A DNA stretch of 64,000 nt from Akkermansiaceae bacterium (GTDB lineage: Bacteria > Verrucomicrobiota > Verrucomicrobiia > Verrucomicrobiales > Akkermansiaceae), in the NCBI GenBank assembly GCA_049889715.1, contig JBMHCW010000062.1, positions 6,858-70,857 on the forward strand, read 5' to 3'. The position numbers were made by a program, and so were the translations under genes. The notes under the pieces are model-generated. The model ran no database searches, was not told where the DNA came from, and was given only the letters and a program-made list of their open reading frames with translations. Within the stretch, counting starts at the first letter, position 1; each line of letters begins with the position of its first letter. Of the stretch, positions 1 through 56,081 are shown piece after piece.

Positions 1-1855
1 GGTAAAAGTCATTCTTCACCATCGGGAGCAGGACGTATTGGAGTGGATCCCAACCGGTTAGTTGAACGCCTTCCCGATTGAGAGTACGGACATGGTCGAA
101 GGCCTCTTCGGTCACCTTGTCGGTGAGCCGGACCCGTCCCGAAAAGAAGCCGTCGGGTTGATAGAAGACCCGGGCCATATCATCCAATTCCGGAGGTCCC
201 TTGGCAAACTCCTCCAAAACCAGCTTGGCGAGGGTTCTTCCCTGTTCGGTGAAGCCCTGCTCCTCCATCACGGTCAGGATTTCCTCCGAGCGTTCGGCCA
301 CCTTTTCCCATGGTTCGCGATTCAATTTCCGGGCCTCTGGATTTGGCAGCAATTCGAGAGGAAGCTCGGAGCTGGCGAGGAATCCTTCCTCGATCATTTT
401 CTCGGCATCCTGGCGGGTGACTTCGAGTCGCTCGCGGATTTCTTCTGGCGAGTCGCCAACCACGAGAACGCTGACGTTCTTTTTGGACCAGGCATTGAAG
501 AGTTCCTGAATGGATTGAAGGGTTTCGGCGGCCTCGCTGGTTTCGGGTTCGATCATGCCAAGATCGAAATTGATTTTTGGAAGCCCCTTGATGGTGAACA
601 CGCCGAGGGAGGCCGCCACCACGAAGGCCAGAAGACCACGGGCGGCCCGGGCCTTCAGGAAGGGAGGGCGGATGAGGGACTTCGATTGCTTCTGGGGAAA
701 CTTCGCGGTGGCCCAGGGCATGATCCAGAGGCAGACGATAGCTCCGACACAGAGACCGATGGCAATGATGCTGCCCAGTTGGGCGACACCCCGGAAGGTG
801 CTGAAGGTCAGCACTGCGAAGACAGCCGTGGTGGTCAGAGCAGCCCAAAGAATGCTGGGTGCGAGATGACGTCGGGTCGAGGCAGCCGATTCACCGGCTT
901 TTGATTCTCTCGCAATGACCACTCCATAGTCGATGACGAGCCCGAGGAGGATGGCCGCGAATCCCACGCTGACCAGATTCAAGGTGCCGTAGAGCCAACC
1001 GGCGATACCCATCGTGATGAGAAAGACCAGTCCCATGATGGCCGCGAGAAAAACAAGGTGGATGGGATTTCGCTGGATCAGAAGAAAGAGAAGCCCGACC
1101 AGCACCGAGGTGATGGTGACCGTGCCGCCCATGTCTTTCTCCATTCCTTTGCCCAGCTCGGCACTGAAGACGGGGCCCCCTGTCAATCGATAGGAAAAGC
1201 CCTCTTCGATCCATGAGTCCATGGCGCCACGGACTTTCTCCACCCACGCCGCGTGGACGCGGTAGTCGGGGACCAGCTCGGGATTGCCGATGGTGATCAG
1301 CCAGTATTTGCCATCGTCACTCTGGAAACTGAAATCGTTCCCCTGGAGATTGAGCACGGCGGGATGATTGAGGAATCCAAGGGGGTCATAGGCGGTCTTG
1401 GTCGACTCCTGTTGATCGATCGAAAGTTCAATCGTGCTCTTGGATTCCTTGAGGAGCGTTTCGAGAGATTCGCGGGAGGCGAGCTTTTCGCTGAAGCGTT
1501 TTACTTCCTCCGGGTCGGCATCCATCCAGAGCCGGGCGAGGCTTTCGGCGACGGCCTCAGGGGCTTCCTCGGGACCGGATCGGGCTTCCACCCGTGCCAT
1601 CGGGAGGGCCTTGCCCAGATGCTCGGCGAGGTCGGTGACGTCCTCCTCGAAGATTTCCTCCTCGTGCTTGAGAAGAAGGATGACCTGTTCGCTGTCGTCG
1701 AAGTGGGTGCGGAGGGCCTGTAGGGCCTCGACTTCGGGCACGCCGGTGGGCATGACGCCGAGAATATCGGTAATGAAGGTCAGCCGCAGGAGCCCCGGAA
1801 GGGAGAAGGCGATGAGGAGGAGGAGAATGAGCCCTGTTCGAAGTCGCTTTGGCAC
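1..1855 (-). CDS. MMPL/RND-superfamily membrane transporter (3' end runs off the window)
   Basis: Not in the ORF track because it has no stop in the window. My minus-strand translation from GTG 1855 reads VPKRLRTGLILLLLIAFSLPGLL...GGPVFSAELGKGMEKDMGGTVTITSVLVGLLFLLIQRNPIHLVFLAAIMGLVFLITMGIAGW...VSVGFAAILLGLVIDYGVVIA. This is the periplasmic loop plus TM bundle typical of MMPL/HpnN-type exporters. The + strand ORFs 62..904, 201..509 and 555..869 are its antisense shadows. Confidence 0.8.
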   Translation of the reverse strand, partial: MPKRLRTGLILLLLIAFSLPGLLRLTFITDILGVMPTGVPEVEALQALRTHFDDSEQVILLLKHEEEIFEEDVTDLAEHLGKALPMARVEARSGPEEAPEAVAESLARLWMDADPEEVKRFSEKLASRESLETLLKESKSTIELSIDQQESTKTAYDPLGFLNHPAVLNLQGNDFSFQSDDGKYWLITIGNPELVPDYRVHAAWVEKVRGAMDSWIEEGFSYRLTGGPVFSAELGKGMEKDMGGTVTITSVLVGLLFLLIQRNPIHLVFLAAIMGLVFLITMGIAGWLYGTLNLVSVGFAAILLGLVIDYGVVIARESKAGESAASTRRHLAPSILWAALTTTAVFAVLTFSTFRGVAQLGSIIAIGLCVGAIVCLWIMPWATAKFPQKQSKSLIRPPFLKARAARGLLAFVVAASLGVFTIKGLPKINFDLGMIEPETSEAAETLQSIQELFNAWSKKNVSVLVVGDSPEEIRERLEVTRQDAEKMIEEGFLASSELPLELLPNPEARKLNREPWEKVAERSEEILTVMEEQGFTEQGRTLAKLVLEEFAKGPPELDDMARVFYQPDGFFSGRVRLTDKVTEEAFDHVRTLNREGVQLTGWDPLQYVLLPMVKNDFY

Positions 1856-41256: not shown

Positions 41257-41262
41257 GAGATC

Positions 41263-41631
41263 TTATTTGATGAGTTTGCGGATCTCCTCGATTTCGGCTT
41301 CGGTGAGCTGTTGGTCGTTGGGATCGAGAAGCGCGGCGACGAGATTTTCAGGTTTCCCTTTGAAGAAGGTGCCGAGGAGGTTTCTCAGCGCGGTGCGTTT
41401 GGCTTTCTTGGCGTTAATAAGAGGACTATAGAGATAGCGTCGCCCTTCCTTGGAATGTTTCACCATGTCCTTGTTTTCCAGGGTGGCAAGGAGGGCGCGG
41501 ACCGCCGAGTAGGAAGGTGGATCCGGGAGTTCGTTCTGGACATCCTGGGCGGTCGCTTCGCCCAGACGGTAAAGAATATCCAGGATCTGGCGTTCGCGAC
41601 GGGAAAGCTCTCCTTTTTCGAGACGGTTCAT
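41263..41631 (-). CDS. BlaI/MecI/CopY family winged-helix transcriptional repressor
   Basis: LSRRERQILDILYRLGEATAQDVQNEL...YSAVRALLATLENKDMVKH...GRRYLYSP. It lies 6 nt upstream of the M56 gene. Confidence 0.9.
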   Translation of the reverse strand: MNRLEKGELSRRERQILDILYRLGEATAQDVQNELPDPPSYSAVRALLATLENKDMVKHSKEGRRYLYSPLINAKKAKRTALRNLLGTFFKGKPENLVAALLDPNDQQLTEAEIEEIRKLIK

Positions 41632-41775: not shown

Positions 41776-43719
41776 ATGAGGATGGTGTTTTCGGAGACGG
41801 GATTGTTGTCGAAGTCGCCGGACTTCGAGTATCGGGCCGAGCAGCAGGAGATGGCGGGAGAGGTTGCGCAGGCTTTGGAAGAGGAGCGTAGTCTGGTGGT
41901 GGAAGCGGGAACGGGTGTGGGCAAGTCGTTGGCATATCTGATCCCTGCGGTGGAGTTTGCCCTGCGCGAGGGGAAGAAGGCGGTGATCTCGACGCATACC
42001 ATCAACTTGCAGGAGCAATTGATGGGGAAGGATCTTCCCATCGTGCAGAAGTTGCTGCCGGAGCCCTTCGATGCAGCCCTGTTGAAGGGGCGGCAGAATT
42101 ATCTCTGTCCGCTGAGGTTGCGTCGGGCCATGGACAATGGAGGTGACTTGTTTACCTCGAGTGAACAGGAGGAGCTGATGGAGATCTGGAAATGGGCCGA
42201 GGCCACGAGGGACGGGACCCGTAGTGATCTGGATTTCGAACCCTCCGCCAAGGTATGGTTGCAGGTTTGCAGCGAGGCTCATTCCTGCACGCAGCGGACC
42301 TGTGGTCCGAGGGGCAATTGCTTTTTTCAGGAAGCCAGAAAGCGAGCTCAGAGTGCGCGGGTATTGGTGGTGAATCACAGCCTGTTTTTTTCGCTGCTCA
42401 ATCCGGAAGAGGAAATGCTCGAGAATGAATCGGGCTTCTTGGTGCCCAACGACTTCGTCATTTTCGACGAGGCTCACACCTTGGAAGCGGTGGCGGCGAA
42501 GTCGCTGGGATTGCGATTGAGCCAGGCCGGCCTGCGCTTCGACTTGCAGCGCCTCTATCATCCTCGGACCAAGAAGGGGCTCTTGAAGTATGCCAAAGCC
42601 GAGCGGGCGATGGAGTGGACGGAGAAGTTGCTCAACGAAGCCGATGACTTTTTTGAGAACGTCGGAGAGGCTGTCACGTTCGGGGATTGGGGAAAGGAAT
42701 GCCGTGTCCGTCAGCCCGAGTTGGTCGAGAACACGTTGGCTGGTCCCTTGCGTGAGTGCTGGGGAGCGATCGAAGAGGTGGCGGAAGAGACCGAGGATGA
42801 TTCCCGCAAGAACGAATTGATGGATGCGGCCCAACGTTTGCGCGAAATGCACGGGGGCTTGAAGATGTTTCTCGATCAGGAGGACGGCGGAAGCGTTTAC
42901 TGGGTCGAAAAGGCGGGGTTCGAAGGAACCGCCTATATTTTAAATGCCGCGCCCATCAACGTTGCCGACCGCTTGAGGTCTCTTTTGTTCGGTCCCGACA
43001 AATCATGCATTGCCACCAGCGCCACCTTGGGAACGGGAGACGAACAGCTGCGATATTTTCGGGAACGGGTGGGAGCCGGACATGTGCCGGCGGTCAAAAT
43101 CGGCAGTCCTTTCGATTACCAGAAGCAGATGGCGATCTACGTCATCAAGTCGATGCCTGATCCCCGCGATGACGATTACGAAAAGATGCTCATCCATTGG
43201 ATCGAGCGGGTGCTCATCAAGACCGAGGGAAAGGCATTTGTCTTGTTCACCAGTCATCGCCTTTTGCGTTCGGTGGCGGAGGAGATGGAGGAGTTCTTCG
43301 AGGACCGTGGATGGACCTTGCTGGCGCAGGGAATGGGAATGCAGCGCCAGAAGATGGTGGAGAAGTTTCGCGAGGATGTGCACAGCGTGCTCTTTGGCAC
43401 CGAGAGCTTCTGGGCCGGGGTCGACGTCCCGGGCGAGGCCTTGAGTAATGTCATCATCACCCGGCTCCCTTTCGGGGTGCCCGATCATCCGCTGACCGCG
43501 GCCCGACTGGAAGAGATCGAAGCGGAGGGAGGGAATCCTTTCATGGAATATTCCGTGCCCGAGGCTGTCATCAAATTGCGTCAAGGGGTGGGCCGGCTCA
43601 TTCGCACCAAAAAAGACGAAGGAATGGTGGTCATCCTGGATAACCGGGTGGTGACCAAGCGCTATGGCAAATCCTTTCTGGCCGCCCTTCCGCCGGCTCC
43701 CGTGAAAATCGTCTCCTAA
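41776..43719 (+). CDS. DinG/XPD-like ATP-dependent DNA helicase (superfamily 2, Fe-S type)
   Basis: Walker A EAGTGVGKSLAYL, a Cys cluster region (YLCP...VCSEAHSCTQRTCGPRGNCFF), DEAH box VIFDEAHTL, and the C-terminal helicase motifs FTSH...FWAGVDVPG...QGVGRLIR. Confidence 0.85.
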   Translation: MRMVFSETGLLSKSPDFEYRAEQQEMAGEVAQALEEERSLVVEAGTGVGKSLAYLIPAVEFALREGKKAVISTHTINLQEQLMGKDLPIVQKLLPEPFDAALLKGRQNYLCPLRLRRAMDNGGDLFTSSEQEELMEIWKWAEATRDGTRSDLDFEPSAKVWLQVCSEAHSCTQRTCGPRGNCFFQEARKRAQSARVLVVNHSLFFSLLNPEEEMLENESGFLVPNDFVIFDEAHTLEAVAAKSLGLRLSQAGLRFDLQRLYHPRTKKGLLKYAKAERAMEWTEKLLNEADDFFENVGEAVTFGDWGKECRVRQPELVENTLAGPLRECWGAIEEVAEETEDDSRKNELMDAAQRLREMHGGLKMFLDQEDGGSVYWVEKAGFEGTAYILNAAPINVADRLRSLLFGPDKSCIATSATLGTGDEQLRYFRERVGAGHVPAVKIGSPFDYQKQMAIYVIKSMPDPRDDDYEKMLIHWIERVLIKTEGKAFVLFTSHRLLRSVAEEMEEFFEDRGWTLLAQGMGMQRQKMVEKFREDVHSVLFGTESFWAGVDVPGEALSNVIITRLPFGVPDHPLTAARLEEIEAEGGNPFMEYSVPEAVIKLRQGVGRLIRTKKDEGMVVILDNRVVTKRYGKSFLAALPPAPVKIVS

Positions 43720-44387
43720 ACCGAGAGAGCCTGCTGCAGTAGTCCGGCGGGCCACTGGTTGGGGGCCGTCGGAGTCGCTCCCAGAAAACCGTAGTTCAAC
43801 AGGGAACCGGCCTTTGCCATCAGGGGGCGGGCAGCCGCTCCCAGGGGGCCCATCCCCATGAGCGATAGAGGAAGGTCGGGAATCGCGTCGAAAAGGTCGA
43901 GATGGCGGCGGATGCAATCCGCAGAGGTGGCCATCAGGGCGAATTTGTGGAGGTCGGCTTTTTCATTGAGCTTACCCCTCAAGTCGCCGGCGTTCGGAGT
44001 GGCCGAAAAATCGTGATAGGAGCCAACCAGAATGACCTCCTCGTCCCTGGCCGCCGAGACGATGTCATCGAGAGCATCGAAATCACGTAGTTCGATGTCG
44101 ATGGCGGAGGCCATCGGAAGAAATTCGCGATAGGCCCGGGCACGGTCGCCGAGGTCCCAGTCGGATTGTCCGCCTTCGGCCTTGCCTCTCGCCGTGATCA
44201 GCAGGGGGAGGGGACAGGTTCGGGCGAAGGAAAGGACGTCCTCTCCCGTTCCCAGCGAGTCGAGCCGGAGCTCCACCACGTCACATCCAGTCAGGTCCGA
44301 CTGGAAGGCTGAGGAATCAGCGATGGCTCCGACAGTCAATGGCTTGCGGGCCTCGAGAGTTTCCCTGAGGGTCTGGCGGGGAGTCAT
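43716..44387 (-). CDS. aroD: Type I 3-dehydroquinate dehydratase
   Basis: VVELRLDSL, ITARGKAEGG, IDIEL, GSYHDFSATP and LHKFALMA (Schiff-base Lys region), then SLMGMGPLG. ATG 44387 chosen. The stop overlaps the dinG-like stop. Confidence 0.8.
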   Translation of the reverse strand: MTPRQTLRETLEARKPLTVGAIADSSAFQSDLTGCDVVELRLDSLGTGEDVLSFARTCPLPLLITARGKAEGGQSDWDLGDRARAYREFLPMASAIDIELRDFDALDDIVSAARDEEVILVGSYHDFSATPNAGDLRGKLNEKADLHKFALMATSADCIRRHLDLFDAIPDLPLSLMGMGPLGAAARPLMAKAGSLLNYGFLGATPTAPNQWPAGLLQQALSV

Positions 44388-44554
44388 GGCGGGAGAATGT
44401 CGTGACCTCTCCCTGCTTGTCAAAAGCCTTCGCGGGGAAATCGCCAACGTTGTCAATGGCTAAAAAATATCAGCCAATTGTCACTTTTTTCCTAGCCGCC
44501 CCCCGCCTTGGTTTCCTAGCTTCGGTGAAGTTACGGTTTATCACACTTATAGCC

Positions 44555-45184
44555 ATGCAGACCACATTCAGAAACCTTCTCACCGCCGCTTGTTCTTTGG
44601 CCCTGAGCGGAAGTGCCTTCGCACAACTCGAGTTGAGCAAGCAGAACGCCTTCGACGTCGGCAAGCCGGATTTCGATAACCTCCAGTCGCCTGACGTTCC
44701 CACGGGTAACAGCAAGAAGTTCTCGCCCAAGGATTGGCTCGAGTGCGAGGTCAAGATCAAGGTCAAGAAGCTGGGCACCACCCCGGATGACAAGTATCTC
44801 GATCAGTTCAAAGTCAACTGGTATGTCGTGGTGAAGGGACAGGATGGCAAGGGTTACATGATGACCAAAACCATCACCCATGTGAACCTGCCCATCGACG
44901 AGGAGGTTCTGGTTTCCGTCTACCTTTCTCCAAATTCCCTCCGCCGAATCACCGGCAAGGTCCGTGCCGGCAAAGGAGATCTCGAAGCCATTGGCGGTGA
45001 GATCGAATACGGCGGCGAGATGGTTGGATTCTTTAGCCACGGCGAGCGAGCCGGATGGTGGCGCAAGGAGCTCAAAAACATCGAGCGCACCGAAAAGTTC
45101 CCCCTCCTCGACAAGTCGCAGACCCCGTTCGCGCCTCTTTGGTACGATCGCTACGCTGAGATTCTGCCGAAAAACGCCAACTAA
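44555..45184 (+). CDS. Secreted protein at the Amuc_1102 position of the pilus-like cluster
   Basis: Signal peptide MQTTFRNLLTAACSLALSGSAFA and a beta-rich 185-aa body. Assigned by position upstream of the PilM-like gene. I do not remember the Amuc_1102 sequence, so this is not a sequence-level call. Confidence 0.5.
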   Translation: MQTTFRNLLTAACSLALSGSAFAQLELSKQNAFDVGKPDFDNLQSPDVPTGNSKKFSPKDWLECEVKIKVKKLGTTPDDKYLDQFKVNWYVVVKGQDGKGYMMTKTITHVNLPIDEEVLVSVYLSPNSLRRITGKVRAGKGDLEAIGGEIEYGGEMVGFFSHGERAGWWRKELKNIERTEKFPLLDKSQTPFAPLWYDRYAEILPKNAN

Positions 45185-45310
45185 CGATCCTTCTTTCCTC
45201 CCGTCGGGGAGGGCAGCCTGAGGAGCTGATTTCTATAGGGTTCCGGCCTCGTGAAACCCCCCGGAGCCTTCTTGACAACTTGTTTTTGAAAGCACTTAAC
45301 ACAAACTACC

Positions 45311-47059
45311 ATGGCTGACCAACAGTCGATCATCGCACTCAACATTGGCTCCCAGCGTATCGCGATGGGGGTCTTCTCACCGACCAAATCGGGTCTGACT
45401 CTGAAAAAATACGGAGCGACCAGCATTCTGGCCGATCCTGCCACCGAGGCCGCCCGCGTTCCCCAGATTCAGCTGGCGATCAAGGAGCTGGCGCAGAGCC
45501 TAAAAGTCGGAAGCCAGAAGGCCGTCTACGCTCTTTCCGGACAATCGGTTTTCGTTCGCTTCGTCAAGCTGCCTCCCCTCGAAGCCGAGGACATGGGTGA
45601 GCTGGTGAAGTTTGAAGCCCAGCAGAACGTTCCTTTCCCCATCGATGAAGTGGTCTGGGACTGGGAAAAGCTCGAGACCGAAGGAATCGACAACGAAGTC
45701 GTTCTCGTGGCCATCAAGTCGGATTCGCTCAATGATCTCAACTCGGTGGTGTCCGAGACCGGACTGGGAACCCAGTTGGTCGACTGTGCGCCGGTGGCCC
45801 TTTACAACGCCTACCGTTACAACTACCCCGAGGCCACGGAGTGCGCTCTCCTTCTCGATGTCGGAGCCAAGACCTCCAACCTCATCTACGCCGACGGCAG
45901 CAAGTTTTTCACCCGAGGGGTTTCCATTGGTGGAGCTGTTCTGACCAGCGCGATTGCCAAGGAATACAACGTCTCCTTCGCTGAGGCTGAAAACAGCAAG
46001 CTGACCTCCGGTCTGGTGACCCTTGGGGGAGGCCACGCCGGCCAGCTCGACGAAGCCACCGCGGCCATGGGTACGGTGATTCGTAATGCCCTCGGACGTC
46101 TCACGGCCGAGATTCAGCGGACCAACACTCTCTTCCGCAGCCAGCAGGGCGGACGGGCTCCCGAGAAGATCCTTCTCGCCGGTGGCACCGCCAATCTTCC
46201 TTACCTCCGGGAATTCCTCCAGGAGAAGCTCAACCTCCCGGTGGAAACCTTCAATCCCCTCCAGCGGATTTCCGTGGGCAAGGGCGTGGATGTCGATGCC
46301 CTCGCCCGCGAAGCCCATCAAATGGGTGAGCTCGTCGGTTTGGGACTCCGGGCTGCCGAAAAGTCCGCCATCAAGATCGATCTCGTTCCCGATGCGGTGC
46401 AGGCCGAGCGCGATATCAACCGTCGCAAGCCCATTCTCATCGCTGCAGCGGCCCTCTTCCTCGGGGGACTGGGCGCCTGGGCCGGACTCAAGGCCCTTTC
46501 GGTGAACGATGCCAAGATGCACCTCAAGGATCTTGAAGGAGAGTCGGTGACCCTCGGGCCGCCGGCCAACAAGATCGAGCGCCTTCTCAAGCAGGAGGAA
46601 GAAACCGGAAAGATGATCAAGGCCTATGCCAAGGCCGAGGAGAATCGCCTCCGGATCGTCAATCAATGGAATTTCATCGCCAAGCACTTCGTGAGTGAGG
46701 TTGCCTGGATTACCGATTTCGAACCGCGCACCAACTTCAGCATGGATGGCGGCGGTTCCAGCGAGCCGGTGATCGATGAAAGCTTCTCCACCAATCCTTA
46801 CGGAAAGTCCTCGATCATGAACGAGGTGACCTCGGCCGACAGTGTCATTCTGCGTGGTCTTCACCTCAACAAGCAGAACGAAGTGACCAACCTGGTGAAG
46901 ACCCTCCGTCTCTCACCGGCCCTCAACTTCAAGTTCAACGACAAGGAGATTCCGGATAGTTCCATCATCAAGACGAACCAGGCCGCTGCCGAGGAGGGTT
47001 TTTATGCCGCTCCCTTCGAGCTCCTGATTCCTCTCAACAATCAAATTCAAGTTAAGTAA
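45311..47059 (+). CDS. PilM-like actin-fold ATPase fused to a PilN-like transmembrane/periplasmic region (Amuc_1101-type)
   Basis: IIALNIGSQRIAMGVF, LLDVGAKTSNLIY and ILLAGGTANLPYLREFL are the actin-fold phosphate/adenosine motifs of PilM/FtsA. These are followed by DLVPDAVQAERDINRRKPILIAAAALFLGGLGAWAGL, a PilN-type anchor, plus a 170-aa periplasmic part. Confidence 0.85.
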   Translation: MADQQSIIALNIGSQRIAMGVFSPTKSGLTLKKYGATSILADPATEAARVPQIQLAIKELAQSLKVGSQKAVYALSGQSVFVRFVKLPPLEAEDMGELVKFEAQQNVPFPIDEVVWDWEKLETEGIDNEVVLVAIKSDSLNDLNSVVSETGLGTQLVDCAPVALYNAYRYNYPEATECALLLDVGAKTSNLIYADGSKFFTRGVSIGGAVLTSAIAKEYNVSFAEAENSKLTSGLVTLGGGHAGQLDEATAAMGTVIRNALGRLTAEIQRTNTLFRSQQGGRAPEKILLAGGTANLPYLREFLQEKLNLPVETFNPLQRISVGKGVDVDALAREAHQMGELVGLGLRAAEKSAIKIDLVPDAVQAERDINRRKPILIAAAALFLGGLGAWAGLKALSVNDAKMHLKDLEGESVTLGPPANKIERLLKQEEETGKMIKAYAKAEENRLRIVNQWNFIAKHFVSEVAWITDFEPRTNFSMDGGGSSEPVIDESFSTNPYGKSSIMNEVTSADSVILRGLHLNKQNEVTNLVKTLRLSPALNFKFNDKEIPDSSIIKTNQAAAEEGFYAAPFELLIPLNNQIQVK

Positions 47060-47080
47060 ACACCTTTCAGACAATTCATT

Positions 47081-48088
47081 ATGACTTGGTTCAAAGAAAA
47101 CAAGTTCCTCGGAGGTCTCATCGTGGTGACGGGCCTTTTGGCTGCCGTGATCATCTACATGGGTCTCCAGTTCAGCTCCTCGCTTGAGGAAACCCTCGAG
47201 GAGGTCGCCACGGCCGAAGCAAAAGACCGGAAGTGGAGAAACCTCGATCCGTTTCCCACTCCCACAAGTGCCGAAGCCAAGAAGGACAGCCTCAAGACTC
47301 TCCTGACGGACGCCAAAGCCACCCAGGAGGTGATCCTCGCCTTCCGTCCTGAGAGTGTGGACAACATTCCACTGACCGAATTCTCGGCCGGCCTCGAAAA
47401 GTCGGTGGCCGAGATCCGGGACCTCTTCGATGGGCAAAACGCCTTGCCTGAGCGCTTCAATCTCGGATTCGAGACCTACGCCTCAAGTCCTCCCAAGGAA
47501 AGTGCCACTGGTGTCTTGAACTACCAGCGCGGAGCCCTCGACTGGCTCTTCCGTGAGCTCGACGCCGCCGGCATCAAGCAGGTCGTCAACCTTCACCGTG
47601 AGAAGCTTCCCGCCGAAAGCGGGGTGGATTGGAACGACGAGCGGGCCATGAAGCAGTTTGCAAATGCCAATCGCTCCCGTAGCAGCAGCTCGAAGGACAG
47701 AAAGTCGCGGGGACGTCGTTCCGCCAAGGCCGAAGTCCTGCCCGAAGTGGCTCATCGCATGCCTTTCGAGATCACCTTCAAGGGACCCGAGCCGACTGTT
47801 CGCAAGTTCCTCACCAGCGTGGCCAATTCCGACCAGTATTTCATCGAGGCTCGCGTGGCCCGGGTGAAGAACGAGGCTCCCATTCCTGAAAAGCCCCGCG
47901 GGGCCAGTGAAAAGAAGGAAGGGGACGACTCGGCGGCCTTTGGTCCCATCGAAGGAGACGAGCCCGAGGAAGGTGCGCCCTCCTCCCAGATTCTCAACCG
48001 GATTTCCGGTGGTGAGGACCTGACTGTTTTCCTGCGTGCCGAAATCCTGCTCTTCAAGGATAGCGCCAAGTTTGCGGAAGTGAAATAA
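47081..48088 (+). CDS. Amuc_1100-like pilus-associated protein (occupies the PilO position)
   Basis: N-terminal anchor MTWFKENKFLGGLIVVTGLLAAVIIY. The blocks LGFETYAS, MPFEITFKGPEPTVRKFLTSVANSDQYFIEARVARVKNE and LTVFLRAEILLF parallel the Akkermansia Amuc_1100 sequence as I recall it. Confidence 0.65.
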   Translation: MTWFKENKFLGGLIVVTGLLAAVIIYMGLQFSSSLEETLEEVATAEAKDRKWRNLDPFPTPTSAEAKKDSLKTLLTDAKATQEVILAFRPESVDNIPLTEFSAGLEKSVAEIRDLFDGQNALPERFNLGFETYASSPPKESATGVLNYQRGALDWLFRELDAAGIKQVVNLHREKLPAESGVDWNDERAMKQFANANRSRSSSSKDRKSRGRRSAKAEVLPEVAHRMPFEITFKGPEPTVRKFLTSVANSDQYFIEARVARVKNEAPIPEKPRGASEKKEGDDSAAFGPIEGDEPEEGAPSSQILNRISGGEDLTVFLRAEILLFKDSAKFAEVK

Positions 48089-48107
48089 CTCCAACTCACA
48101 ACACACA

Positions 48108-49151
48108 ATGTCCTGGATTAAAGAAAATTATCATATCGCCGCCCTCGGAGGCGGAGTCCTCGTCCTTGCCGGGCTGGGGTACACCGCCTACGCCGCCAAG
48201 CAGGAAGTGAACGAAGGCTTTGCCACTCCGGTCGACGGAAGAGGGAAGACCACCACTGTCGCCAATGGCGACATTCTGAGCACGTTGGATGACTCGCTGA
48301 AGACGGAGAACCCTGTGGTGATTTCCACGACTCCGACCAATCGTCCGGTTCAGCTGTTTTCGAGTGTCGATCTCTTCATCGAAGACGGGAAACCCAACGA
48401 GCTGAAGGATCTCCTCACGATGAAGGATAACGTTCATCCTCCCATTCCCAACAAGTGGTGGGTCGACAACATGCTCGATCCGACTTGGTCTGATTCTCCA
48501 CAGCGGGACAAGGACGGGGATGGATTCTCCAATTTGGAGGAATTCGAGGCCAATACCGATCCCAACGACGAGAAGAGTTTCGGTGATCTCATCACCAAGC
48601 TCAGAGTGGCTGAAGTGAAATCCACGATCTGGCGTCTTGAGTTCAACTCGGTCCTCGGAAACGGTTTTCAGCTCAATCTTCTCTTCAAAGAGCCCGGTGG
48701 TCCGGTGCAGAACAACCGCATGGGTGCCAACGATGCCATCAATCCCGGAGATCTGTTCTTCAAGGAAGGGGTCGGCAAGGACCGCTTCAAGCTCCTTAAG
48801 GTCGAGCCTCGCAAGATGAAGACATCGACAGGGGAGAAGGATGTGCCTTTCGCTTTTGTTGAAGATCAACTTGAGAACAAGAAGGGTGATGTCTATGAGC
48901 TGCAGTTCGGGATGAAGCAGGGAGAATTGCTCAAGAGCACCCGCTATGACCACACTGTGGTCTTCTATCTCGATGCCATCGGAGAGTCCGGAAACAAGTT
49001 CGAGGTGGTCGAAAATGGCACCTTTGCCCTTCCTTCAAGTGGCTCCGAAAAAAGCTACAAACTGACCGAAGTGAAGCTTGGTGCTGACAATCAGCCCGAA
49101 TCCGTGGTGGTTGAAGGACCAAACGGACCAGTCGAAATCCCCGTAGAATAA
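48108..49151 (+). CDS. Membrane-anchored protein at the PilP / Amuc_1099 position, with TSP3-like Ca-binding motif
   Basis: Anchor MSWIKENYHIAALGGGVLVLAGLGYTAY and the motif DKDGDGFSNLEEFEANTDPND. The rest is unrecognised. Confidence 0.55.
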   Translation: MSWIKENYHIAALGGGVLVLAGLGYTAYAAKQEVNEGFATPVDGRGKTTTVANGDILSTLDDSLKTENPVVISTTPTNRPVQLFSSVDLFIEDGKPNELKDLLTMKDNVHPPIPNKWWVDNMLDPTWSDSPQRDKDGDGFSNLEEFEANTDPNDEKSFGDLITKLRVAEVKSTIWRLEFNSVLGNGFQLNLLFKEPGGPVQNNRMGANDAINPGDLFFKEGVGKDRFKLLKVEPRKMKTSTGEKDVPFAFVEDQLENKKGDVYELQFGMKQGELLKSTRYDHTVVFYLDAIGESGNKFEVVENGTFALPSSGSEKSYKLTEVKLGADNQPESVVVEGPNGPVEIPVE

Positions 49152-49252
49152 AGGAAAACACTCAAACGGGTCAGGAAAAATTTAGAAATTTAAAGGTTTC
49201 TGAAAAAAAGCTTCCCAGACCCCCCACTAATCAACGAATATTCAACCAGATC

Positions 49253-51844
49253 ATGCAGAAAAGACACACACACCTTACCCATCGCACAATGTTTGCCCTC
49301 GCGGCGCTCGTTGTGTCCCCCGTCGCTATCGCCGAGGAGGGATATGGAGACGGTCTTGCGCAGCAGGAGATGATCCGACGTCAACAAAACGTCATCACCT
49401 CCGATGAGCTTCGCGACGAAGGCCGTAAAGCATACGCGGAAGGGGATTATGAGACGGCCGTCTCCAAGTATCGTGCCGCTCTCGACATTCTCCCTTACGG
49501 AACCGCCACCGCCGATCGCCGTCAGGTTCTCAATGACCACCTGCAGGACGGATCGCTGGCGCTGTCCCAAACATACCGCCGGACCGGAAAGTATGAGGAA
49601 GCCCGCGAGCTTCTGACTGCTGTCGATAAGGCCGACCCTGGTAACATGGTTGCCAAGAAGGGACTCGAGTATCTCGACGATCCCATTCGGACCAACCAAG
49701 CCCTTGATTACGCCCATACTCAGGACGTCGACAAGGTTCGCCGCCATCTTTACACCGGTGAAGGTTTCTACGATCTTGGCCGCTACGACAAAGCGGAAGA
49801 GGAATTCAAGCAGATCCTTCGCATTGACCCATACAACAAAGCTGCCCGCCGTTGGCTGGAGCGTTGTGCTGCCATCAAGTCCGACTATTACCGCTCTGCA
49901 TACGATCACACTCGTGCGGAAATGCTCGCTCAGGTGGACGCAGCCTGGGAGCTGGCCATTCCACCTCTGGTGTCGGTCGGCCCTGGCCCTGGCCCCGGAC
50001 CCATCATCGCGGGTGGAGAAGCTTCCATTGCCGGCAAGCTGAACACCATCATCATCCCTGAGATCAGCCTCAACAACTCCACCGTGGAAGAAGCGGTGGA
50101 ATTCCTCCGCCTTCGTTCGGTGGAGCTTGATCCTGAAGGAACCGGCATCAACTTCGTGGTGCGCACTCCGAAGGTGGTTGGTGAAAGTGGTGAAGACCTT
50201 GGTGACGGGGGAGACCTCGGCGCAGCTGACGATGCCCTTGGCACCGGAGCTAATCCTAACGCCATTCTCATCAAGCAGCTCAACCTCAAGAACGTCCCGC
50301 TTCGTGTGGCTCTCCAGTATATCTGTGAAGAAGCCAACCTCCGCTACAAGGTGGATGAGTTCGCGGTGACTTTGCTTTCCCTCGGTGACGAAGACGAGGC
50401 TGACATCGTGCAGCGTCGTTGGACCGTTCCTCCGACCTTTGAGACTTTCCTGAACACCACCGGTGGTGGTGGAGACGGCGGACCAGCTGAGATCGATCCA
50501 TTCGGTGGAGGCGGTGGTGACGACGACGGGGGCATCGCTCCACGTCTTGGCATTGTCGATCTCCTCAAGAACGCCGGTGTATCCTTCGGTCCTAACGCTT
50601 CGGCTACTCTTCTGTCTGCTTCTAGCACGCTCATCGTGCGGAACACTCCGACCCAGCTCGAAGTGATCGACGGAATCGTGAAGGCCGCCCAGAACAATAC
50701 CCCTCGCCAGATCCGGGTCACCACGAAGTTCGTGGAAATCAACCAGGAGAACAACGAGGAACTTGGATTTGACTGGATCGCCACTCCGTTTGGCTTCGGT
50801 AGTAACTACTTCTTCGGTGGTGGCACCGTGGGAAGCGGAAGCACCCGGACCAACCAGGACTTCATCAGCCCTGTTGACCGCGTCAACATCCCGGGGATCC
50901 CGGCCAACCCTGCTCAGGCCGTTTCGGGAATCGTGACTGCCGGTAACCGTAGTGGTGCCGCCGCGATCGACCGTAACAGCATCGATGCCATCCTGAACAA
51001 CCCACAGCGGACTGCCCAGCAGGCCAACGTGGCTCCCGGTATCCTTTCCCTTACCGGTCTCTTCAGCAGTGGTCAGGTTCAAATGATCATGCGCGGTCTT
51101 TCCCAGAAGAAAGGCGCCGACATCATGACCGCACCAAGTGTGGTGGCTCTGCCCGGACAAAGTGCAACGATCGAGATCATTCGTGAGTTTATCTACCCAA
51201 CCGAATACGAACCCCCCGAACTCCCCAACCAGGTTGGCGGTAACATCGGTGGAGGTATCGGTGGTGGCCTCGTCGGTGGTGGCGGTGGTGGCGGGTTCCC
51301 CGTGACCCCGGCAACTCCTTCGGCCTTCGACACCAAGAACACTGGTGTGACACTCGAGGTGGAAGCCCAGATCGATGCCAACGACAGCATCATTGAGCTT
51401 CGCTTCACGCCGACCATCGTTGAATTCGAAGGTTTCGTGAACTACGGTAGCCCGATTACCGCTCCGGCAACGGACGCCCTTGGAAACCCTGTGCAGATCG
51501 TGATCACCGAAAACCGCATCGAGATGCCCGTCTTCTCGGTCCGCAGCGTGAAAACCGGTCTTACCATCTATGACGGCTACACCGTGGCTGTGGGTGGTTT
51601 GATGCGCGAGGATGTCCAGAGCGTGGAAGACAAGGTGCCCATTCTTGGTGATCTGCCTCTCGTCGGACGTTTGTTCCAGACCAAGGCTGAGAACCACATC
51701 AAGAGTAACCTGATTATCTTCGTGACTGCTGAGATCATCGACGCCACAGGCCGTCGGGTGAACAGCGGAGGTGAGGCAGCAACTGGTGCCATCCCCGACA
51801 TCGGAGCTGGTGATACCGGAGTTCTCCCGACTCTCGACCAGTAA
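49253..51844 (+). CDS. Secretin (PilQ/GspD family) with N-terminal TPR region (Amuc_1098-type)
   Basis: TPR-like helices (GDYETAVSKYRAALDI, GKYEEARELLTAV, GRYDKAEEEFKQILRIDP). The secretin domain reads IRVTTKFVEINQENNEELGFDW...VPILGDLPLVGRLFQTKAENHIKSNLIIFVTAEII. A Gly-rich insert GGNIGGGIGGGLVGGGGGGGF is present. Confidence 0.9.
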   Translation: MQKRHTHLTHRTMFALAALVVSPVAIAEEGYGDGLAQQEMIRRQQNVITSDELRDEGRKAYAEGDYETAVSKYRAALDILPYGTATADRRQVLNDHLQDGSLALSQTYRRTGKYEEARELLTAVDKADPGNMVAKKGLEYLDDPIRTNQALDYAHTQDVDKVRRHLYTGEGFYDLGRYDKAEEEFKQILRIDPYNKAARRWLERCAAIKSDYYRSAYDHTRAEMLAQVDAAWELAIPPLVSVGPGPGPGPIIAGGEASIAGKLNTIIIPEISLNNSTVEEAVEFLRLRSVELDPEGTGINFVVRTPKVVGESGEDLGDGGDLGAADDALGTGANPNAILIKQLNLKNVPLRVALQYICEEANLRYKVDEFAVTLLSLGDEDEADIVQRRWTVPPTFETFLNTTGGGGDGGPAEIDPFGGGGGDDDGGIAPRLGIVDLLKNAGVSFGPNASATLLSASSTLIVRNTPTQLEVIDGIVKAAQNNTPRQIRVTTKFVEINQENNEELGFDWIATPFGFGSNYFFGGGTVGSGSTRTNQDFISPVDRVNIPGIPANPAQAVSGIVTAGNRSGAAAIDRNSIDAILNNPQRTAQQANVAPGILSLTGLFSSGQVQMIMRGLSQKKGADIMTAPSVVALPGQSATIEIIREFIYPTEYEPPELPNQVGGNIGGGIGGGLVGGGGGGGFPVTPATPSAFDTKNTGVTLEVEAQIDANDSIIELRFTPTIVEFEGFVNYGSPITAPATDALGNPVQIVITENRIEMPVFSVRSVKTGLTIYDGYTVAVGGLMREDVQSVEDKVPILGDLPLVGRLFQTKAENHIKSNLIIFVTAEIIDATGRRVNSGGEAATGAIPDIGAGDTGVLPTLDQ

Positions 51845-51861
51845 TCATCTTGAATCCTTTC

Positions 51862-51897
51862 AAAAGCGGGATCTGCCAGTCAGATCCCGCTTTTTTT
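51862..51897 (+). terminator. Intrinsic terminator after the secretin gene
   Basis: AAAAGCGGGATCTG-ccagt-CAGATCCCGCTTTTTTT, a perfect 14-bp stem plus a T7 run. Confidence 0.8.
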
Positions 51898-51938
51898 GTG
51901 ATCAGATTAGGCGTATTTTTCGAGGCGACGTGAGGGTG

Positions 51939-52532
51939 ATGGCGTTAACAGGTGGGATTGCCACCGGGAAATCGACAGCGGTGAAAATCCTGCGCGAGCT
52001 CGACGAGGGGGTTCGGATTTTTGATTGCGACGAGTCCGTGCAGGTCTTGTTGAAAAGTGGTGAAGTGCTTGAAGAGATTTCGGAAGCTCTCGGAAGCCCG
52101 GTCATGGATGAGAAGGGAGAGTTGAACCGGGAGGTCTTGAGGTCGTTGGTCTTTGATCAGCCGGAGCAGCGAAAAAAACTGGAGCAGGTCCTCCATCCCA
52201 AGGTGCGAAAGGAATGTCTTGTGAAACGGGATGAATTTCGTAGTAATCCCCGCACGACGCTGTTTGTCGCTGATGTTCCGCTGCTTTTTGAGAGCGGATT
52301 TCACTTCGGTCAGGAGCTCAGTCTGGTGGTGGCCACTTCGAGTGCCACCCAGCGGGTTCGCTTGAAAGCCCGGAGTCATTTCGAAGACAGGATGATCACA
52401 TCGATCCTTCAAGCGCAGCTTCCCATCATGGAGAAGGTCGCACGAGGGGACGTCGTTTTCTGGAACGAGGGGCCGCCGTCCATTTTGCGACGTCAGCTTC
52501 AAAGATTCCTGACCTCACTTTTGATATCATGA
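51939..52532 (+). CDS. coaE: Dephospho-CoA kinase
   Basis: MALTGGIATGKST P-loop at the N-terminus, and the typical length (197 aa). DVPLLFESG is a CoaE hallmark. The track ORF 51771.. has a spurious N-terminal extension across the terminator. Confidence 0.85.
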   Translation: MALTGGIATGKSTAVKILRELDEGVRIFDCDESVQVLLKSGEVLEEISEALGSPVMDEKGELNREVLRSLVFDQPEQRKKLEQVLHPKVRKECLVKRDEFRSNPRTTLFVADVPLLFESGFHFGQELSLVVATSSATQRVRLKARSHFEDRMITSILQAQLPIMEKVARGDVVFWNEGPPSILRRQLQRFLTSLLIS

Positions 52533-54433
52533 GCGAAGAGCAAGAGCCGATTGAATCCAGTTCTCCCGAAGAGGAGGCTGCCGAGAAGCCCCCCGTTAAG
52601 AAGGCTGGGAAGAAGGCGACCAAGAAGGTGGCAAAAAAGGCTGCGAAGAAAGCGACCAAGAAGGCTGCCAAAAAAGCGGCCAAAAAAGCGACCAAGAAGT
52701 CCTCAAAGAAGGCAGCCAAAAAGGTCGAGTCAGTGACCGAGTCACCTGAGCTGGAATTGGGACTGGAAGCGGAGAGTGATTCCGGTGAATTGGATGCGGT
52801 CGCGGAAGCTGCGGCAGCTGAATTGGCGGCGGCCAGGGCTGCCGAGGCGGCAGCGAAAGCGGCGGCAGAAGCGATGGCAGCGGTCGAGGCCGCCAAGGCC
52901 AAGCTGGCGGCGGCCAAGGAGGCTAAAAAGACGGCCAAAGTAGAGGCGGCCGAAAAAGAGGTTGAGGAAGATTTGGTGTCGACTGCCGAAGAGGTTTCTT
53001 CGGAAACCAAGGAGGTTCCGGAAGCAGACGTCGAGGAAGCAGTCGAGACTGAGATTGTCGCCAAGCTGGTGGATGACGAGGGGAAAACGGCTGAGGAGGA
53101 CAAGGCTCCGGCGGAGGAGAAGAAAGAGCGACCGAAAAAGGAGACTCCGCCACCACCACCTCCGCCCGAAGTGCCGGATGAGATTGATCTCAATGGATTT
53201 CGGGAGGAGCCGATGTCGGTTCTTTACGACGAAGCAGAGAGATTGCCGGTTCGTATTCCCAATCAAGTGACCTGCGCCCATTTGGCTTTCACCATTTTGT
53301 CCTGTTATGCCAAATATGGCACAAGGGTTGTCGGTGAGGGGGTTGTGGAGTTTTCCAAGGGGAAATTCGGTATGCTGAGGGACGAACTGAGAAGTTTTCG
53401 TCCGTCGCCCGATGATCTCTATGTTCCTGCTGAAATTATGGAGCAGTATGATTTACGGGAAGGTCAACGTTTGAAGGTGGAGATTCGTCCTCCGGGACAT
53501 CGGGACCAGTATCTAGGAGTTGCCAAAGTCCTCGAAATCGATGGTCAACCGGTCGAGGAGTATGGACAGGCCACACATTTCGATGATTTGACGTCCTTGT
53601 TCCCGGAAGAGCGATTTGTTCTCGAGGGGAGTGACGAGAGCGGAGGATTGGCCACCCGGGTTGTGGATTTGGTGGCTCCTCTCGGTAAAGGTCAGCGGGG
53701 GTTGATTGTCGCTCCTCCCAGAGGGGGCAAAACCATTCTCCTGAAGCAGATTGCGCAGGCCATTCAGAACAACCATCCGGATGCCGAGCTGGTGGTCCTG
53801 CTCCTTGATGAGCGACCCGAAGAAGTGACGGATTTCGAGGAAATGGTGGGGCAAAACGTCTTTGCTTCGACCTTCGATGAGCCGTCGAAGCGTCATGCCC
53901 AGGTGGCCAATCTTGTCTTGGAGCGGGCCCGACGCCTCGTGGAACAGGGGAAGGATGTCGTTGTCTTGCTTGATAGTCTGACTCGTCTTGCCCGAGGATA
54001 CAACAATGCGGTGCGGGGAGGGCCGATTGGATCCGGAGGAATCAGCCCCCGGGCCATTACGGATACCCGGAAATTTTTTGGGGCCGCCCGTAACGTCGAG
54101 GAAGGTGGGAGCCTGACGATTCTTGCGACCTGTCTGATTGAGACGGAAAGTCGTATGGATGACGTGATTTTCGAGGAACTCAAAGGAACTGGTAACATGG
54201 AGGTGCGATTGGACCGCGAGTTGGCGGAACAGCGGATCTACCCGGCGATTCACATTCCCCAGAGCGGGACGAGGAATGACGACCGACTCTACCACCAGGA
54301 TGAGCTCCCGCGGGTCCAGGAGATCCGGCGTCATCTCGCCAGTTTGCCCATCGGGGAGGCCATTGAGACCCTTCTTAAGAATCTGGCCCGGACAAAATCC
54401 AATACCGAGCTTCTTTTACAAGGGATGAGGTGA
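52529..54433 (+). CDS. rho: Transcription termination factor Rho with ~220-aa Lys/Ala/Glu-rich N-terminal extension
   Basis: The C-terminal 410 aa are canonical Rho: the RNA-binding CSD-like domain (GEGVVEFSKGKFGMLRD), Walker A (LIVAPPRGGKTILL), LLDSLTRLARGYN and the R-loop region. The ATG overlaps the coaE stop (ATGA). Confidence 0.95.
   Translation: MSEEQEPIESSSPEEEAAEKPPVKKAGKKATKKVAKKAAKKATKKAAKKAAKKATKKSSKKAAKKVESVTESPELELGLEAESDSGELDAVAEAAAAELAAARAAEAAAKAAAEAMAAVEAAKAKLAAAKEAKKTAKVEAAEKEVEEDLVSTAEEVSSETKEVPEADVEEAVETEIVAKLVDDEGKTAEEDKAPAEEKKERPKKETPPPPPPPEVPDEIDLNGFREEPMSVLYDEAERLPVRIPNQVTCAHLAFTILSCYAKYGTRVVGEGVVEFSKGKFGMLRDELRSFRPSPDDLYVPAEIMEQYDLREGQRLKVEIRPPGHRDQYLGVAKVLEIDGQPVEEYGQATHFDDLTSLFPEERFVLEGSDESGGLATRVVDLVAPLGKGQRGLIVAPPRGGKTILLKQIAQAIQNNHPDAELVVLLLDERPEEVTDFEEMVGQNVFASTFDEPSKRHAQVANLVLERARRLVEQGKDVVVLLDSLTRLARGYNNAVRGGPIGSGGISPRAITDTRKFFGAARNVEEGGSLTILATCLIETESRMDDVIFEELKGTGNMEVRLDRELAEQRIYPAIHIPQSGTRNDDRLYHQDELPRVQEIRRHLASLPIGEAIETLLKNLARTKSNTELLLQGMR
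52598..52723 (+). repeat. Coding low-complexity repeat (KKAxKK)n inside the rho 5' region
   Basis: KKAGKKATKKVAKKAAKKATKKAAKKAAKKATKKSSKKAAKK, encoded by imperfect AAG/AAA-GCN repeats. Confidence 0.7.
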
Positions 54434-54590
54434 TTTTACGCTTGTCGCCCCATTTCCCGGACCGCTATTCTACTGAAACACAAAACAATCTTTGTCATTC
54501 CATGATTCGGACGGGAAGGTCCGGATCGTTGCCTTTTATGGTTGAAAGGAATGAAATTACTTTGTAAATGCATTGCAGACACCTTCGAAC

Positions 54591-56081
54591 ATGAACATCG
54601 CAAAACACACCGCCGCCGCATTGGGGGCCTTCACGCTGAGTGCCACGCTGGTCCACGGGCAGGCGCGCCTCTTCTTCGAGGATATCAAGAATTTTCATCA
54701 GACCGAGCCGATGGACTCCGAGTATTTGGGTGGAAGTTTCGATGTCACCTTGATCGATGGCAGCTATACCATTCTTGGTTGTATTGCCAACGGCGGAACA
54801 CAGTTCATGGCTCCCAACCAGCTTTGTCCGGCGGGAACCACAGCATTGATCGACAGCGGTGATATCGATGGTGACGGTCTGCGTGATGGTGGAACTTATT
54901 GGTCGGTGGGGCAGGTGATCCCAGCGATTCAGGTGGAGCCTTTCTTTCCGAGTCTGGTCGAGCTTTTAGCGGCTCCTCCCTCGGATCTTCCCCGTCCTCT
55001 TGGGGGATTCAATTGGACTGACGACAGTATCGTTCTTTACTTCGATCTCGTGAACGACCCCGGTCGTTTGGTGGGATATGAGATTTCCCGCTATCTGTCG
55101 TCCCGGCAGTATGCTCCGACCCAGTTGGAGAAACATCGTCGCGAAATTGTTCCCGGAACCTACACCTTTAAGTTCCCGGCCTTGGGCAGTAATGATGTCA
55201 ACCCGGCAAACTTCTTTGTCCAGCTCGGTCACCGGGAAATGGTGGAAGCCTTTCCTGGACCCGGCGGAACAAGTGTGACCAGTGAAGGCATCGCGGTGGG
55301 CAATGACTTCCGGCTGACCAATGACGAGGATTGGAGAGGAAACAAATTGGAAATCGATCCAAGAATCGTCTATCGCCTCGAGTGGGAAGGATTCAATCCT
55401 TCCACCTTCCTTTCAGTTGACCAGGTCTTTTTCTCGGTTCTCGATCGTCAGTCCGGAGATATGATTTATCCTCCCTATCCTCCAGGGAACGCAACCTTCC
55501 CCCAGTTGATCGGAAGCGCCGAATTGGGAATTCCGACTTTCTTCGAATTGGGACCTGCCTTCTTCTCGGTGGGACAGCAAGTGGTCTGCGAACTGAACTT
55601 CAGACGGTCCAATCCTTTCGGGAACGCTACCGACGTCTCGGTGCGGAACTTCACTTGGGATATTGACTTCATCGATACCTACGAGGGGTTCATTGCCCTT
55701 GGGTTCCCCGATGGGACCTTGGACTCCCTGACCGATCCCAGTGCTGACGCCGATGGCGACGGTTGGACCAATCTTGAGGAATACGCCCTTCAAACGGACG
55801 TGGCCGATCCAGCCTCTGTTCCGAATGTGACTCCGACCCTGGCCGGTGTTCCCGGCTTCCAGCAGTGTGTTGTCGATGTTCCCAAGCGTCCTTTTGTCGG
55901 GAACAGCCTGACCTACGAAGTGGAGTATTCGACTGATCTCGAGAACTGGACAGTCATCACCGAGGACGATCCAAACTGGTATATTGAATTTGACAACGAG
56001 GCTCGCTACCGGGTCCGCAGTATCGCTCCTTTCGGGACGACGACCTGCCTTACCCGCGTGAGAATCACCCAGAACTATTAG
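54591..56081 (+). CDS. Hypothetical secreted protein with C-terminal DxDGDG-x-TN-x-EEYA module shared with the downstream S8 protease
   Basis: Signal peptide MNIAKHTAAALGAFTLSATLVHG. The ~400-aa body is unrecognised. The C-terminus reads DADGDGWTNLEEYALQTD...LTYEVEYSTDLENW... Confidence 0.6.
   Translation: MNIAKHTAAALGAFTLSATLVHGQARLFFEDIKNFHQTEPMDSEYLGGSFDVTLIDGSYTILGCIANGGTQFMAPNQLCPAGTTALIDSGDIDGDGLRDGGTYWSVGQVIPAIQVEPFFPSLVELLAAPPSDLPRPLGGFNWTDDSIVLYFDLVNDPGRLVGYEISRYLSSRQYAPTQLEKHRREIVPGTYTFKFPALGSNDVNPANFFVQLGHREMVEAFPGPGGTSVTSEGIAVGNDFRLTNDEDWRGNKLEIDPRIVYRLEWEGFNPSTFLSVDQVFFSVLDRQSGDMIYPPYPPGNATFPQLIGSAELGIPTFFELGPAFFSVGQQVVCELNFRRSNPFGNATDVSVRNFTWDIDFIDTYEGFIALGFPDGTLDSLTDPSADADGDGWTNLEEYALQTDVADPASVPNVTPTLAGVPGFQQCVVDVPKRPFVGNSLTYEVEYSTDLENWTVITEDDPNWYIEFDNEARYRVRSIAPFGTTTCLTRVRITQNY

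Follow-up and report, generated by a model that had tools for sequence, protein, structure and literature searches.

The 64,000-nt stretch of DNA analysed here (hereafter the window), which comes from an uncultured Akkermansiaceae bacterium, contains a five-gene locus that is, with near certainty, the orthologue of the Amuc_1102-1098 operon of Akkermansia muciniphila, also known as the MUL2 operon. Five co-directional open reading frames (ORFs) on the forward (+) strand span positions 44555-51844 and encode, in order, proteins of 209, 582, 335, 347 and 863 amino acids, with intergenic gaps of 126, 21, 19 and 101 nt; position, length and strand are those given in an earlier note on this DNA. 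In an NCBIfam scan with curated cut-offs, each of the five products exceeded the cut-off of exactly one equivalog. These are the Amuc_1102-family (MUL2A) protein (44555..45184; NF042424, 206.5 bits vs a cut-off of 55), the Amuc_1101-family protein (45311..47059; NF045709, 737.6 bits vs 650), the Amuc_1100-family protein (47081..48088; NF038287, 203.4 bits vs 180), the Amuc_1099-family protein (48108..49151; NF042425, 291.9 bits vs 50) and the Amuc_1098-family outer-membrane secretin (49253..51844; NF042912, 1048.7 bits vs 750). The operon is closed by an intrinsic terminator (51862..51901, + strand) located between the secretin gene and coaE, in which a G+C-rich stem (51862-51894; 14 bp with 7 G-C pairs, 5-nt loop) is followed by a T-run, and the terminator noted earlier is therefore real. 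On the + strand, the sequence upstream of the operon showed no sigma-70-like promoter, a result that is uninformative for this phylum.

The assignment is also supported by comparison with solved structures. The Amuc_1102-like protein aligned with the Amuc_1102 chain 7dsz_A (PDB 7DSZ, Ig-like fold) at a phmmer E-value of 4.3e-29, and the Amuc_1100-like protein aligned as a single sequence with the Amuc_1100 chain 6kny_A (PDB 6KNY) at 1.3e-7, pairwise values that mark the sequences as distant from those of A. muciniphila. With a profile built from 18 homologues, the match to 6KNY extended over residues 33-323 at E 7.7e-24. The phmmer alignment to 6KNY recovers the block pairs LGFETYAS/LGFQVYST, MPFEITFKG/MPLEIAFQG and YFIEARVARVKNE/YLFTVNSIRIRNE, and the colinear similarity to Amuc_1100 given in the earlier note is borne out, as is its proposal that the whole locus is the counterpart of Amuc_1102..Amuc_1098.

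The conservation of the locus was assessed with an Amuc_1100-like protein profile, searched against a single genome for each GTDB species, which yielded 70 related loci from Akkermansiaceae, Luteolibacter, other Verrucomicrobiales and Chthoniobacterales; synteny was then determined by tblastn of the window proteins, and the patterns described hold in every locus with an available flank. The collinear, one-strand order 1102-1101-1100-1099-1098 is found throughout, and in both orders the operon always starts with the 1102-like gene. In Verrucomicrobiales the arrangement is a DinG-like helicase gene (+), aroD (-), 1102, 1101, 1100, 1099, 1098, coaE and rho, while in Chthoniobacterales it is 1102..1098-coaE-rho. 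Pfam matches in the neighbouring ORFs of the window agree, with aroD upstream and coaE (match from ~51936) and rho downstream. The closest species representative (locus L001) is 77-90% identical. Because synteny is conserved wherever the flank was available in the 70 loci, the possibility, named in the earlier note as one that would count against its reading, that the five genes are not kept together in related genomes no longer stands. The aroD gene (43716-44456, - strand) divergently adjoins the operon throughout Verrucomicrobiales. In Proteobacteria, pilMNOPQ/hofMNOPQ genes lie next to aroK-aroB, and the presence of shikimate-pathway genes beside PilM-Q-type operons is a curious recurring link.

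The locus is already known, annotated and published, also for the aquatic relatives. An exact look-up found all five proteins in GenBank (MGC6465891.1 to MGC6465895.1, from a 106-kb contig of an Akkermansiaceae metagenome-assembled genome), where PGAP names them 'Amuc_1102/1101/1100/1099/1098 family ...', the first being an 'Amuc_1102 family pilus-like protein'. Ottman 2017 described the products of the Amuc_1098-1102 cluster as abundant in the envelope and as possibly forming pili-like structures. Later work names the cluster the MUL2 locus, likens the structure of Amuc_1100 to PilO/PilN and calls the locus 'important for mucin acquisition'. According to a review, the intracellular build-up of mucin products needs MUL genes, which encode a periplasmic complex and pili. 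In 266/352 non-muciniphila Akkermansiaceae genomes, Wilkie et al. (ISME J 2026) reported MUL2A/B, with synteny conserved in aquatic members, and they proposed attachment to and uptake of fucose-rich glycans; their figure has a secretin, dephospho-CoA kinase, Rho and 3-dehydroquinate dehydratase as neighbours, as in the window. Since MUL2 and its aquatic synteny are published, with genetic evidence for mucin acquisition and with the proteins named in GenBank, the description of the locus as an under-described system does not hold.

Taken as a whole, it is probable that this MUL2 orthologue provides the scaffold of a machine for glycan capture and uptake whose motor and pilin genes are unlinked, a mechanism that we infer from its components. 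The operon products would span the envelope as the scaffold of a type IV pilus or type II secretion-like machine. In such a machine, a cytoplasmic PilM domain would be covalently connected, by way of the IDLVP motif of PilN type, to a bitopic inner-membrane protein that is PilN-like and would pair with the bitopic, PilO/PilN-like Amuc_1100-like protein. In the PilP position lies the bitopic Amuc_1099-like protein, a probable link between the inner-membrane platform and the outer-membrane secretin, which carries tetratricopeptide repeats (TPRs). The Sec-exported, Ig-fold Amuc_1102-like protein would be specific to this machine and reside in the periplasm or at the surface. As in A. muciniphila, the genes for the motor ATPase, the platform protein, the prepilin peptidase and the class-III pilins are expected at other sites in the genome, and the machine would serve the capture and uptake of complex glycans, which in this organism would probably be sulfated and fucose-rich.

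In this scheme, the fused protein is the Amuc_1101-like product. Its domains comprise an actin-like, cytoplasmic PilM domain (residues 1-348), the IDLVP motif (residues 356-360), one transmembrane (TM) helix within a ~95-residue helix, and a C-terminal alpha/beta domain. The PilM domain passes the cut-offs of TIGR01175 (172.7 bits vs 133) and PF11104 (135.4 vs 27, E 2.9e-39); the Pfam matches are PilM_2 and FtsA, and in a PDB search residues 4-348 matched M. xanthus PilM (3jc8_Ma, E 6.5e-38). The KIDLVP stretch (residues 355-360) aligns on RINLLP of PilN in 5EOU, an engineered P. aeruginosa PilM-PilN(1-12) chimera, and the IDLVP motif is invariant in 21/21 Amuc_1101-family sequences. An AlphaFold2 model of residues 340-582 (mean predicted local distance difference test, pLDDT, 77.8) places a disordered linker before one continuous ~95-residue helix, including the TM segment, and the alpha/beta domain. 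These observations support the view that the Amuc_1101-like protein is a natural PilM-PilN fusion that has kept the PilN docking motif, as the earlier note had proposed. Because the fold matches of the C-terminal half are weak, the case is made by the motif and the architecture. The Pfam models of PilM (PF11104) and secretin (PF00263) matched the operon products, while those of PilN, PilO and PilP found no match; for the fused protein, PF05137 (PilN) gave no Pfam match at E <= 0.01 in residues 349-582.

A fused architecture of this kind is also known from type II secretion systems (T2SSs), in which GspL carries an actin-like domain in the cytoplasm, a single TM helix and a ferredoxin-like domain in the periplasm. 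The locus could thus encode a T2SS-like exporter scaffold, with the fused protein as GspL, the Amuc_1100-like and Amuc_1099-like proteins as GspM and GspC analogues and the secretin as GspD. The substrates of such an exporter would be proteins that degrade or bind glycans, the Amuc_1102-like protein possibly among them, and impaired uptake in mutants would then be an indirect effect. The secretin bears on this alternative in both directions. Its layout consists of an N-terminal TPR region (residues ~57-203), matched by several Pfam TPR families, a secretin domain (residues ~600-830; PF00263, 98.7 bits vs 27.5, E 3.5e-28) and a Gly-rich loop (residues 662-682); no AMIN domain was reported by the Pfam scan. 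The best PDB sequence matches of the core are to GspD (5wln, E 5.4e-15) and PilQ cores, and the nearest type-specific model is GspD (TIGR02517), whose 105.8 bits nevertheless remain far under the cut-off of 351; PilQ (TIGR02515) reached 84.5 bits vs a cut-off of 284. XcpY/GspL is among the weak Foldseek matches of the fused protein, and several secreted-type glycan enzymes are encoded in the window. On the other hand, the cytoplasmic domain passes the PilM models TIGR01175 and PF11104 and is followed by an INLLP-like motif of PilN type, no GspL, GspM or GspC family was matched at E <= 0.01, and no gspE-K genes lie nearby. An exporter of this kind is therefore considered unlikely.

The Gly-rich loop of the secretin had been presented as a local poly-Gly insert. 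It is present, but it is a family-wide trait: its position, between the IREFIYPTEYEPPELPN and FPVTPATP blocks, is conserved in 50+ loci, and the same site carries it in every locus examined, from Akkermansiaceae to Chthoniobacterales, so that it was discarded as a local feature.

The pilus scaffold reading expects motor and pilin genes outside the operon. Pfam searches of all sizeable ORFs of the 64-kb window found no T2SSE, T2SSF or prepilin peptidase domain, and a six-frame regular-expression search for the prepilin cleavage motif found nothing; a further ~4 kb of sequence beyond the window is likewise without pilus genes. The earlier statement that no pilin, PilB/PilT, PilC or prepilin peptidase gene lies in the window is thus correct, but such an absence is normal beside a pilMNOPQ-type operon. 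In P. aeruginosa and Neisseria, the pilin, ATPase and platform genes lie in operons apart from pilMNOPQ, and in A. muciniphila PilC (Amuc_1584) and other pilus proteins are produced from unlinked loci. Because A. muciniphila and the model organisms also separate these genes, their absence from the window is not evidence for a machine without a motor.

Two related alternatives nevertheless propose such a machine. According to the first, the locus represents a separate branch of type IV filaments that lacks class-III pilins and a PilB-type motor and displays or assembles the Sec-exported, Ig-fold Amuc_1102-like protein via the TPR-secretin by means of the fused PilM-N / 1100 / 1099 scaffold, with the Amuc_1099-like protein as a new fold replacing PilP, polysaccharide import instead of fibre export as the function and the spacer RNA described below setting the stoichiometry; this is decidedly unlikely. 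The second, highly unlikely, holds that the five genes form a self-sufficient machine of a distinct type IV filament branch, with no motor and no class-III pilins, in which the PilM-N / 1100 / 1099 scaffold assembles or displays the Sec-exported, Ig-fold 1102 subunit through the secretin. It draws on the Amuc_1102-like protein, which has a Sec-type signal peptide (...SGSAFA|QLE) and no class-III prepilin signal, whose gene is invariantly the first across two orders and whose A. muciniphila counterpart has been likened in the literature to archaeal type IV pilin with respect to its fold; it also draws on the 64 kb devoid of pilin, ATPase and platform genes. Against this, the PilM domain has been kept in full, and because PilM serves to dock the PilB/PilT/PilC motor, this points to a partner in the cytoplasm. 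Moreover, A. muciniphila expresses PilC and other pilus proteins from elsewhere in its genome, and model type IVa pilus (T4aP) systems normally keep pilMNOPQ apart from the genes for motor and pilins. Finally, a competence (DNA-uptake) pseudopilus scaffold of the PilMNOPQ/HofMNOPQ kind has a very slim chance of being correct, since, although Thermus, Neisseria and others take up DNA by means of PilMNOQ-type proteins and the secretin core has a weak NCBIfam match to HofQ, the latter (65 bits) falls far under the cut-off of 554, the published phenotype of the A. muciniphila locus concerns mucin acquisition, and the proteins are among the most abundant of the envelope, which would be unusual for a competence apparatus.

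Several points weigh against the scaffold for glycan uptake that is preferred here. Amuc_1100 of A. muciniphila has been assigned by experiment to a surface or outer-membrane location, an uneasy fit with a PilO-like role in the inner membrane. For the C-terminal half of the Amuc_1101-like protein, Foldseek returned PilO (3jc8_Oa, prob 0.66; 2rjz, prob 0.60) and XcpY/GspL, none of them significant (E 0.13-0.29). PF04351 (PilP) found no Pfam match in the Amuc_1099-like protein, and this lack of PilP similarity, which extends to the PDB sequence, PDB profile and Foldseek results given below, leaves gene position as the one argument for its bridging role. The role in glycan uptake is itself transferred, by analogy, from A. 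muciniphila genetics, as cited in later papers, and from the 2026 work on aquatic Akkermansiaceae. In addition, the structured spacer RNA, to which a regulatory part is ascribed below, is not a constant part of the locus: L001, the closest species representative, keeps only its second hairpin, and many clade members have a 50-nt 1102-1101 spacer without the element, which is therefore dispensable.

The Amuc_1100-like and Amuc_1099-like proteins fill the positions of PilO and PilP. In line with the earlier note, neither carries a canonical signature: Pfam reported no PilO (PF04350) match in the Amuc_1100-like protein and no PilP match in its neighbour, and within the PDB the Amuc_1100 family profile matched Amuc_1100 only. 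The Amuc_1100-like protein begins with MTWFKENK and a TM anchor. It contains the basic stretch NANRSRSSSSKDRKSRGRRSAKAE within a basic low-complexity linker (residues ~195-220), which had been regarded as an insert peculiar to this protein. In the family alignment, a linker of variable length is found in most aquatic Amuc_1100 homologues, and the insert was accordingly rejected as a local anomaly; it is present but family-wide.

The Amuc_1099-like protein, which begins with MSWIKEN and a TM anchor, carries DKDGDGFSNLEEF. In its family the residues of a DxDxDGxxNxxE motif (D134, D136, D138, G139, N142 and E145) are invariant; judged by its sequence, this TSP3-type motif probably binds calcium, and PF18884 (TSP3_bac) scored 21.2 bits, below its cut-off. 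The AlphaFold2 model of the protein has a mean pLDDT of 75.4, with a beta-rich C-terminal region (residues ~160-347) that is mostly above 85. PDB sequence and profile searches returned nothing, and Foldseek against the PDB gave nothing at E < 0.05 (best 0.056), with no PilP or GspC among the matches listed. With Pfam, phmmer against the PDB, the PDB profile search and Foldseek in agreement, the candidate identity as PilP was rejected. The Amuc_1099 family, with a confidently predicted structure that is not PilP-like, is the least understood part of the machine and, because it has no solved relative and does not resemble PilP, the best structural target. A shared N-terminus, M-[ST]-W-[FI]-K-E-N followed by a TM helix, is common to the Amuc_1100-like (47081-47170) and Amuc_1099-like (48108-48200) proteins, and the first 36 residues of the latter match the Amuc_1100 NCBIfam model at E 0.0026. 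This common N-terminus may serve for docking in the cytoplasm or reflect paralogy.

The only new item at the locus is an RNA element in the 126-nt spacer between the 1102-like and 1101-like genes, which is absent from Rfam (no match at E <= 1 in 43500-53000). The element (45190..45273, + strand) was detected with a covariance model and by covariation and consists of three hairpins: H1 (45197-45212, CCTCCC-GTCG-GGGAGG), H2 (45214-45228, CAGC-CUGAGGA-GCUG) and H3 (45237-45270), whose loop starts with CCUC. The first of these is the hairpin that the earlier note had pointed out after the first gene, and it proves to be one helix of a covarying structure. In related species with long spacers, hairpins occur at matching places with differing stem sequences. 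A covariance model seeded with five other species found the window spacer (32 bits, E 1.7e-5) as well as four more species that were not in the seed; in the 1.18 Mb searched, its matches all fell in the 1102-1101 spacer on the + strand, apart from a single weak one (E 0.24) in L017, which lies on the opposite strand. A second-iteration model recovered the same ten spacers and nothing else, with the window at 58 bits. The carriers, 10/71 sources, are the window and loci L002 (L002:8116-8196), L003 (L003:8117-8197), L024, L025, L027, L028, L030, L031 and L032.

In the alignment derived from the covariance model, and hence fitted to the structure, 92.7% of cells are paired and 12/18 pairs are changed on both sides, values that 0/500 shuffles reached, while slid controls gave 36-50% pairing. 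Because loop lengths differ, RNAalifold on a MAFFT alignment recovered helix 2 only, and the seed covariance model was needed. Folding-energy z-scores were mostly unremarkable (-0.33 for the window; +0.29 to -3.9 over 12 sequences), and thermodynamic stability was set aside as evidence for the hairpins. The case for the element consequently draws on covariation and positional specificity. It is a reasonable inference that the spacer RNA acts as an attenuator, processing or stabilizing element that uncouples expression of the first gene from the rest, in line with the suggestion of the earlier note, and it would probably set the level of the Amuc_1102-like product apart from the other four. Its presence in some aquatic species could explain differential expression within the operon. 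The GAGG of the H2 loop is complementary to the CCUC at the start of the H3 loop in most members, a putative pairing. In some loci of the Luteolibacter clade, a hairpin and T-run follow the 1102 gene instead.

The closest known system is MUL2 of A. muciniphila (Ottman 2017, Davey 2023, Wilkie 2026), which has the same five families, order, strand and neighbours and, in that species, an unlinked PilC. Differences beyond the sequence distance already mentioned are a longer basic linker in the window Amuc_1100-like protein (~43 vs ~15 residues between aligned blocks), the presence of sulfatases near the window operon and the structured spacer RNA, which is restricted to a subset of aquatic species. 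With the T4aP PilMNOPQ proteins of P. aeruginosa, M. xanthus and T. thermophilus, the locus shares the PilM domain, the N-terminal motif of PilN (IDLVP vs INLLP), bitopic partners with coiled-coil and alpha/beta regions, a C-terminal secretin domain and an operon apart from the motor and pilin genes. In contrast to these systems, PilM and PilN are fused, the PilN, PilO and PilP Pfam signatures are missing, the P-slot protein is predicted by its model to have an unrelated fold, the N-terminus of the secretin carries TPRs and an extra Sec-dependent Ig-fold protein heads the operon. Compared with the GspL-GspM-GspC-GspD set of T2SSs, the fusion of actin-like, TM and periplasmic parts is GspL-like and the secretin core is nearest to GspD chains, whereas GspL, GspM and GspC family matches and adjacent gspE-K genes are lacking and GspD remains under its cut-off.

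According to published work, the machine that makes the immunomodulatory Amuc_1100 of A. muciniphila is an ancient, syntenic glycan-acquisition apparatus of Verrucomicrobiota. To this picture the present analysis adds direct sequence evidence for natural PilM-PilN fusion in the Amuc_1101 family. Only two points are worth carrying forward, namely the spacer RNA element and the unassigned fold of the Amuc_1099 family.

The remainder of the window encodes, according to Pfam, an M3 peptidase, an S41 peptidase, Rho, an S8 subtilase, an RNase D-like protein, GyrB and BlaI/BlaR1-like proteins. Two sulfatases, a PA14 + 3-keto-disaccharide hydrolase protein, a PEP-CTERM protein and a Laminin_G_3 protein are encoded at 7334-8827 (-), 16866-18527 (+), 12076-15021 (-), 8901-9587 (+) and 23917-26022 (-). 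These glycan-related genes fit the lifestyle of polysaccharide-degrading aquatic Akkermansiaceae, and the host is probably aquatic.

GC skew ranges from ~+0.10 to +0.26 between ~8 kb and 44 kb, regardless of gene strand, falls to ~-0.01 to -0.06 over the five-gene locus (44001-52000) and returns to +0.19 over rho. Downstream of the operon, Rho (52529-54433, +) has a ~230-residue N-terminal extension, of low complexity and rich in Lys, Ala and Glu, before its RNA-binding domain. It is followed by a 502-residue protein without a Pfam match (54573-56081, +), whose C-terminal DADGDGWTNLEEY is a TSP3-type motif like that of the Amuc_1099-like protein, and next by a 1249-residue S8 subtilase with a P-domain (56130-59879, +); the two are syntenic downstream of rho only in the closest (marine) Akkermansiaceae loci. 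A gene pair for a BlaI-type repressor and a BlaR1 (peptidase M56) sensor lies at 40300-41631 (-), upstream of the helicase gene.

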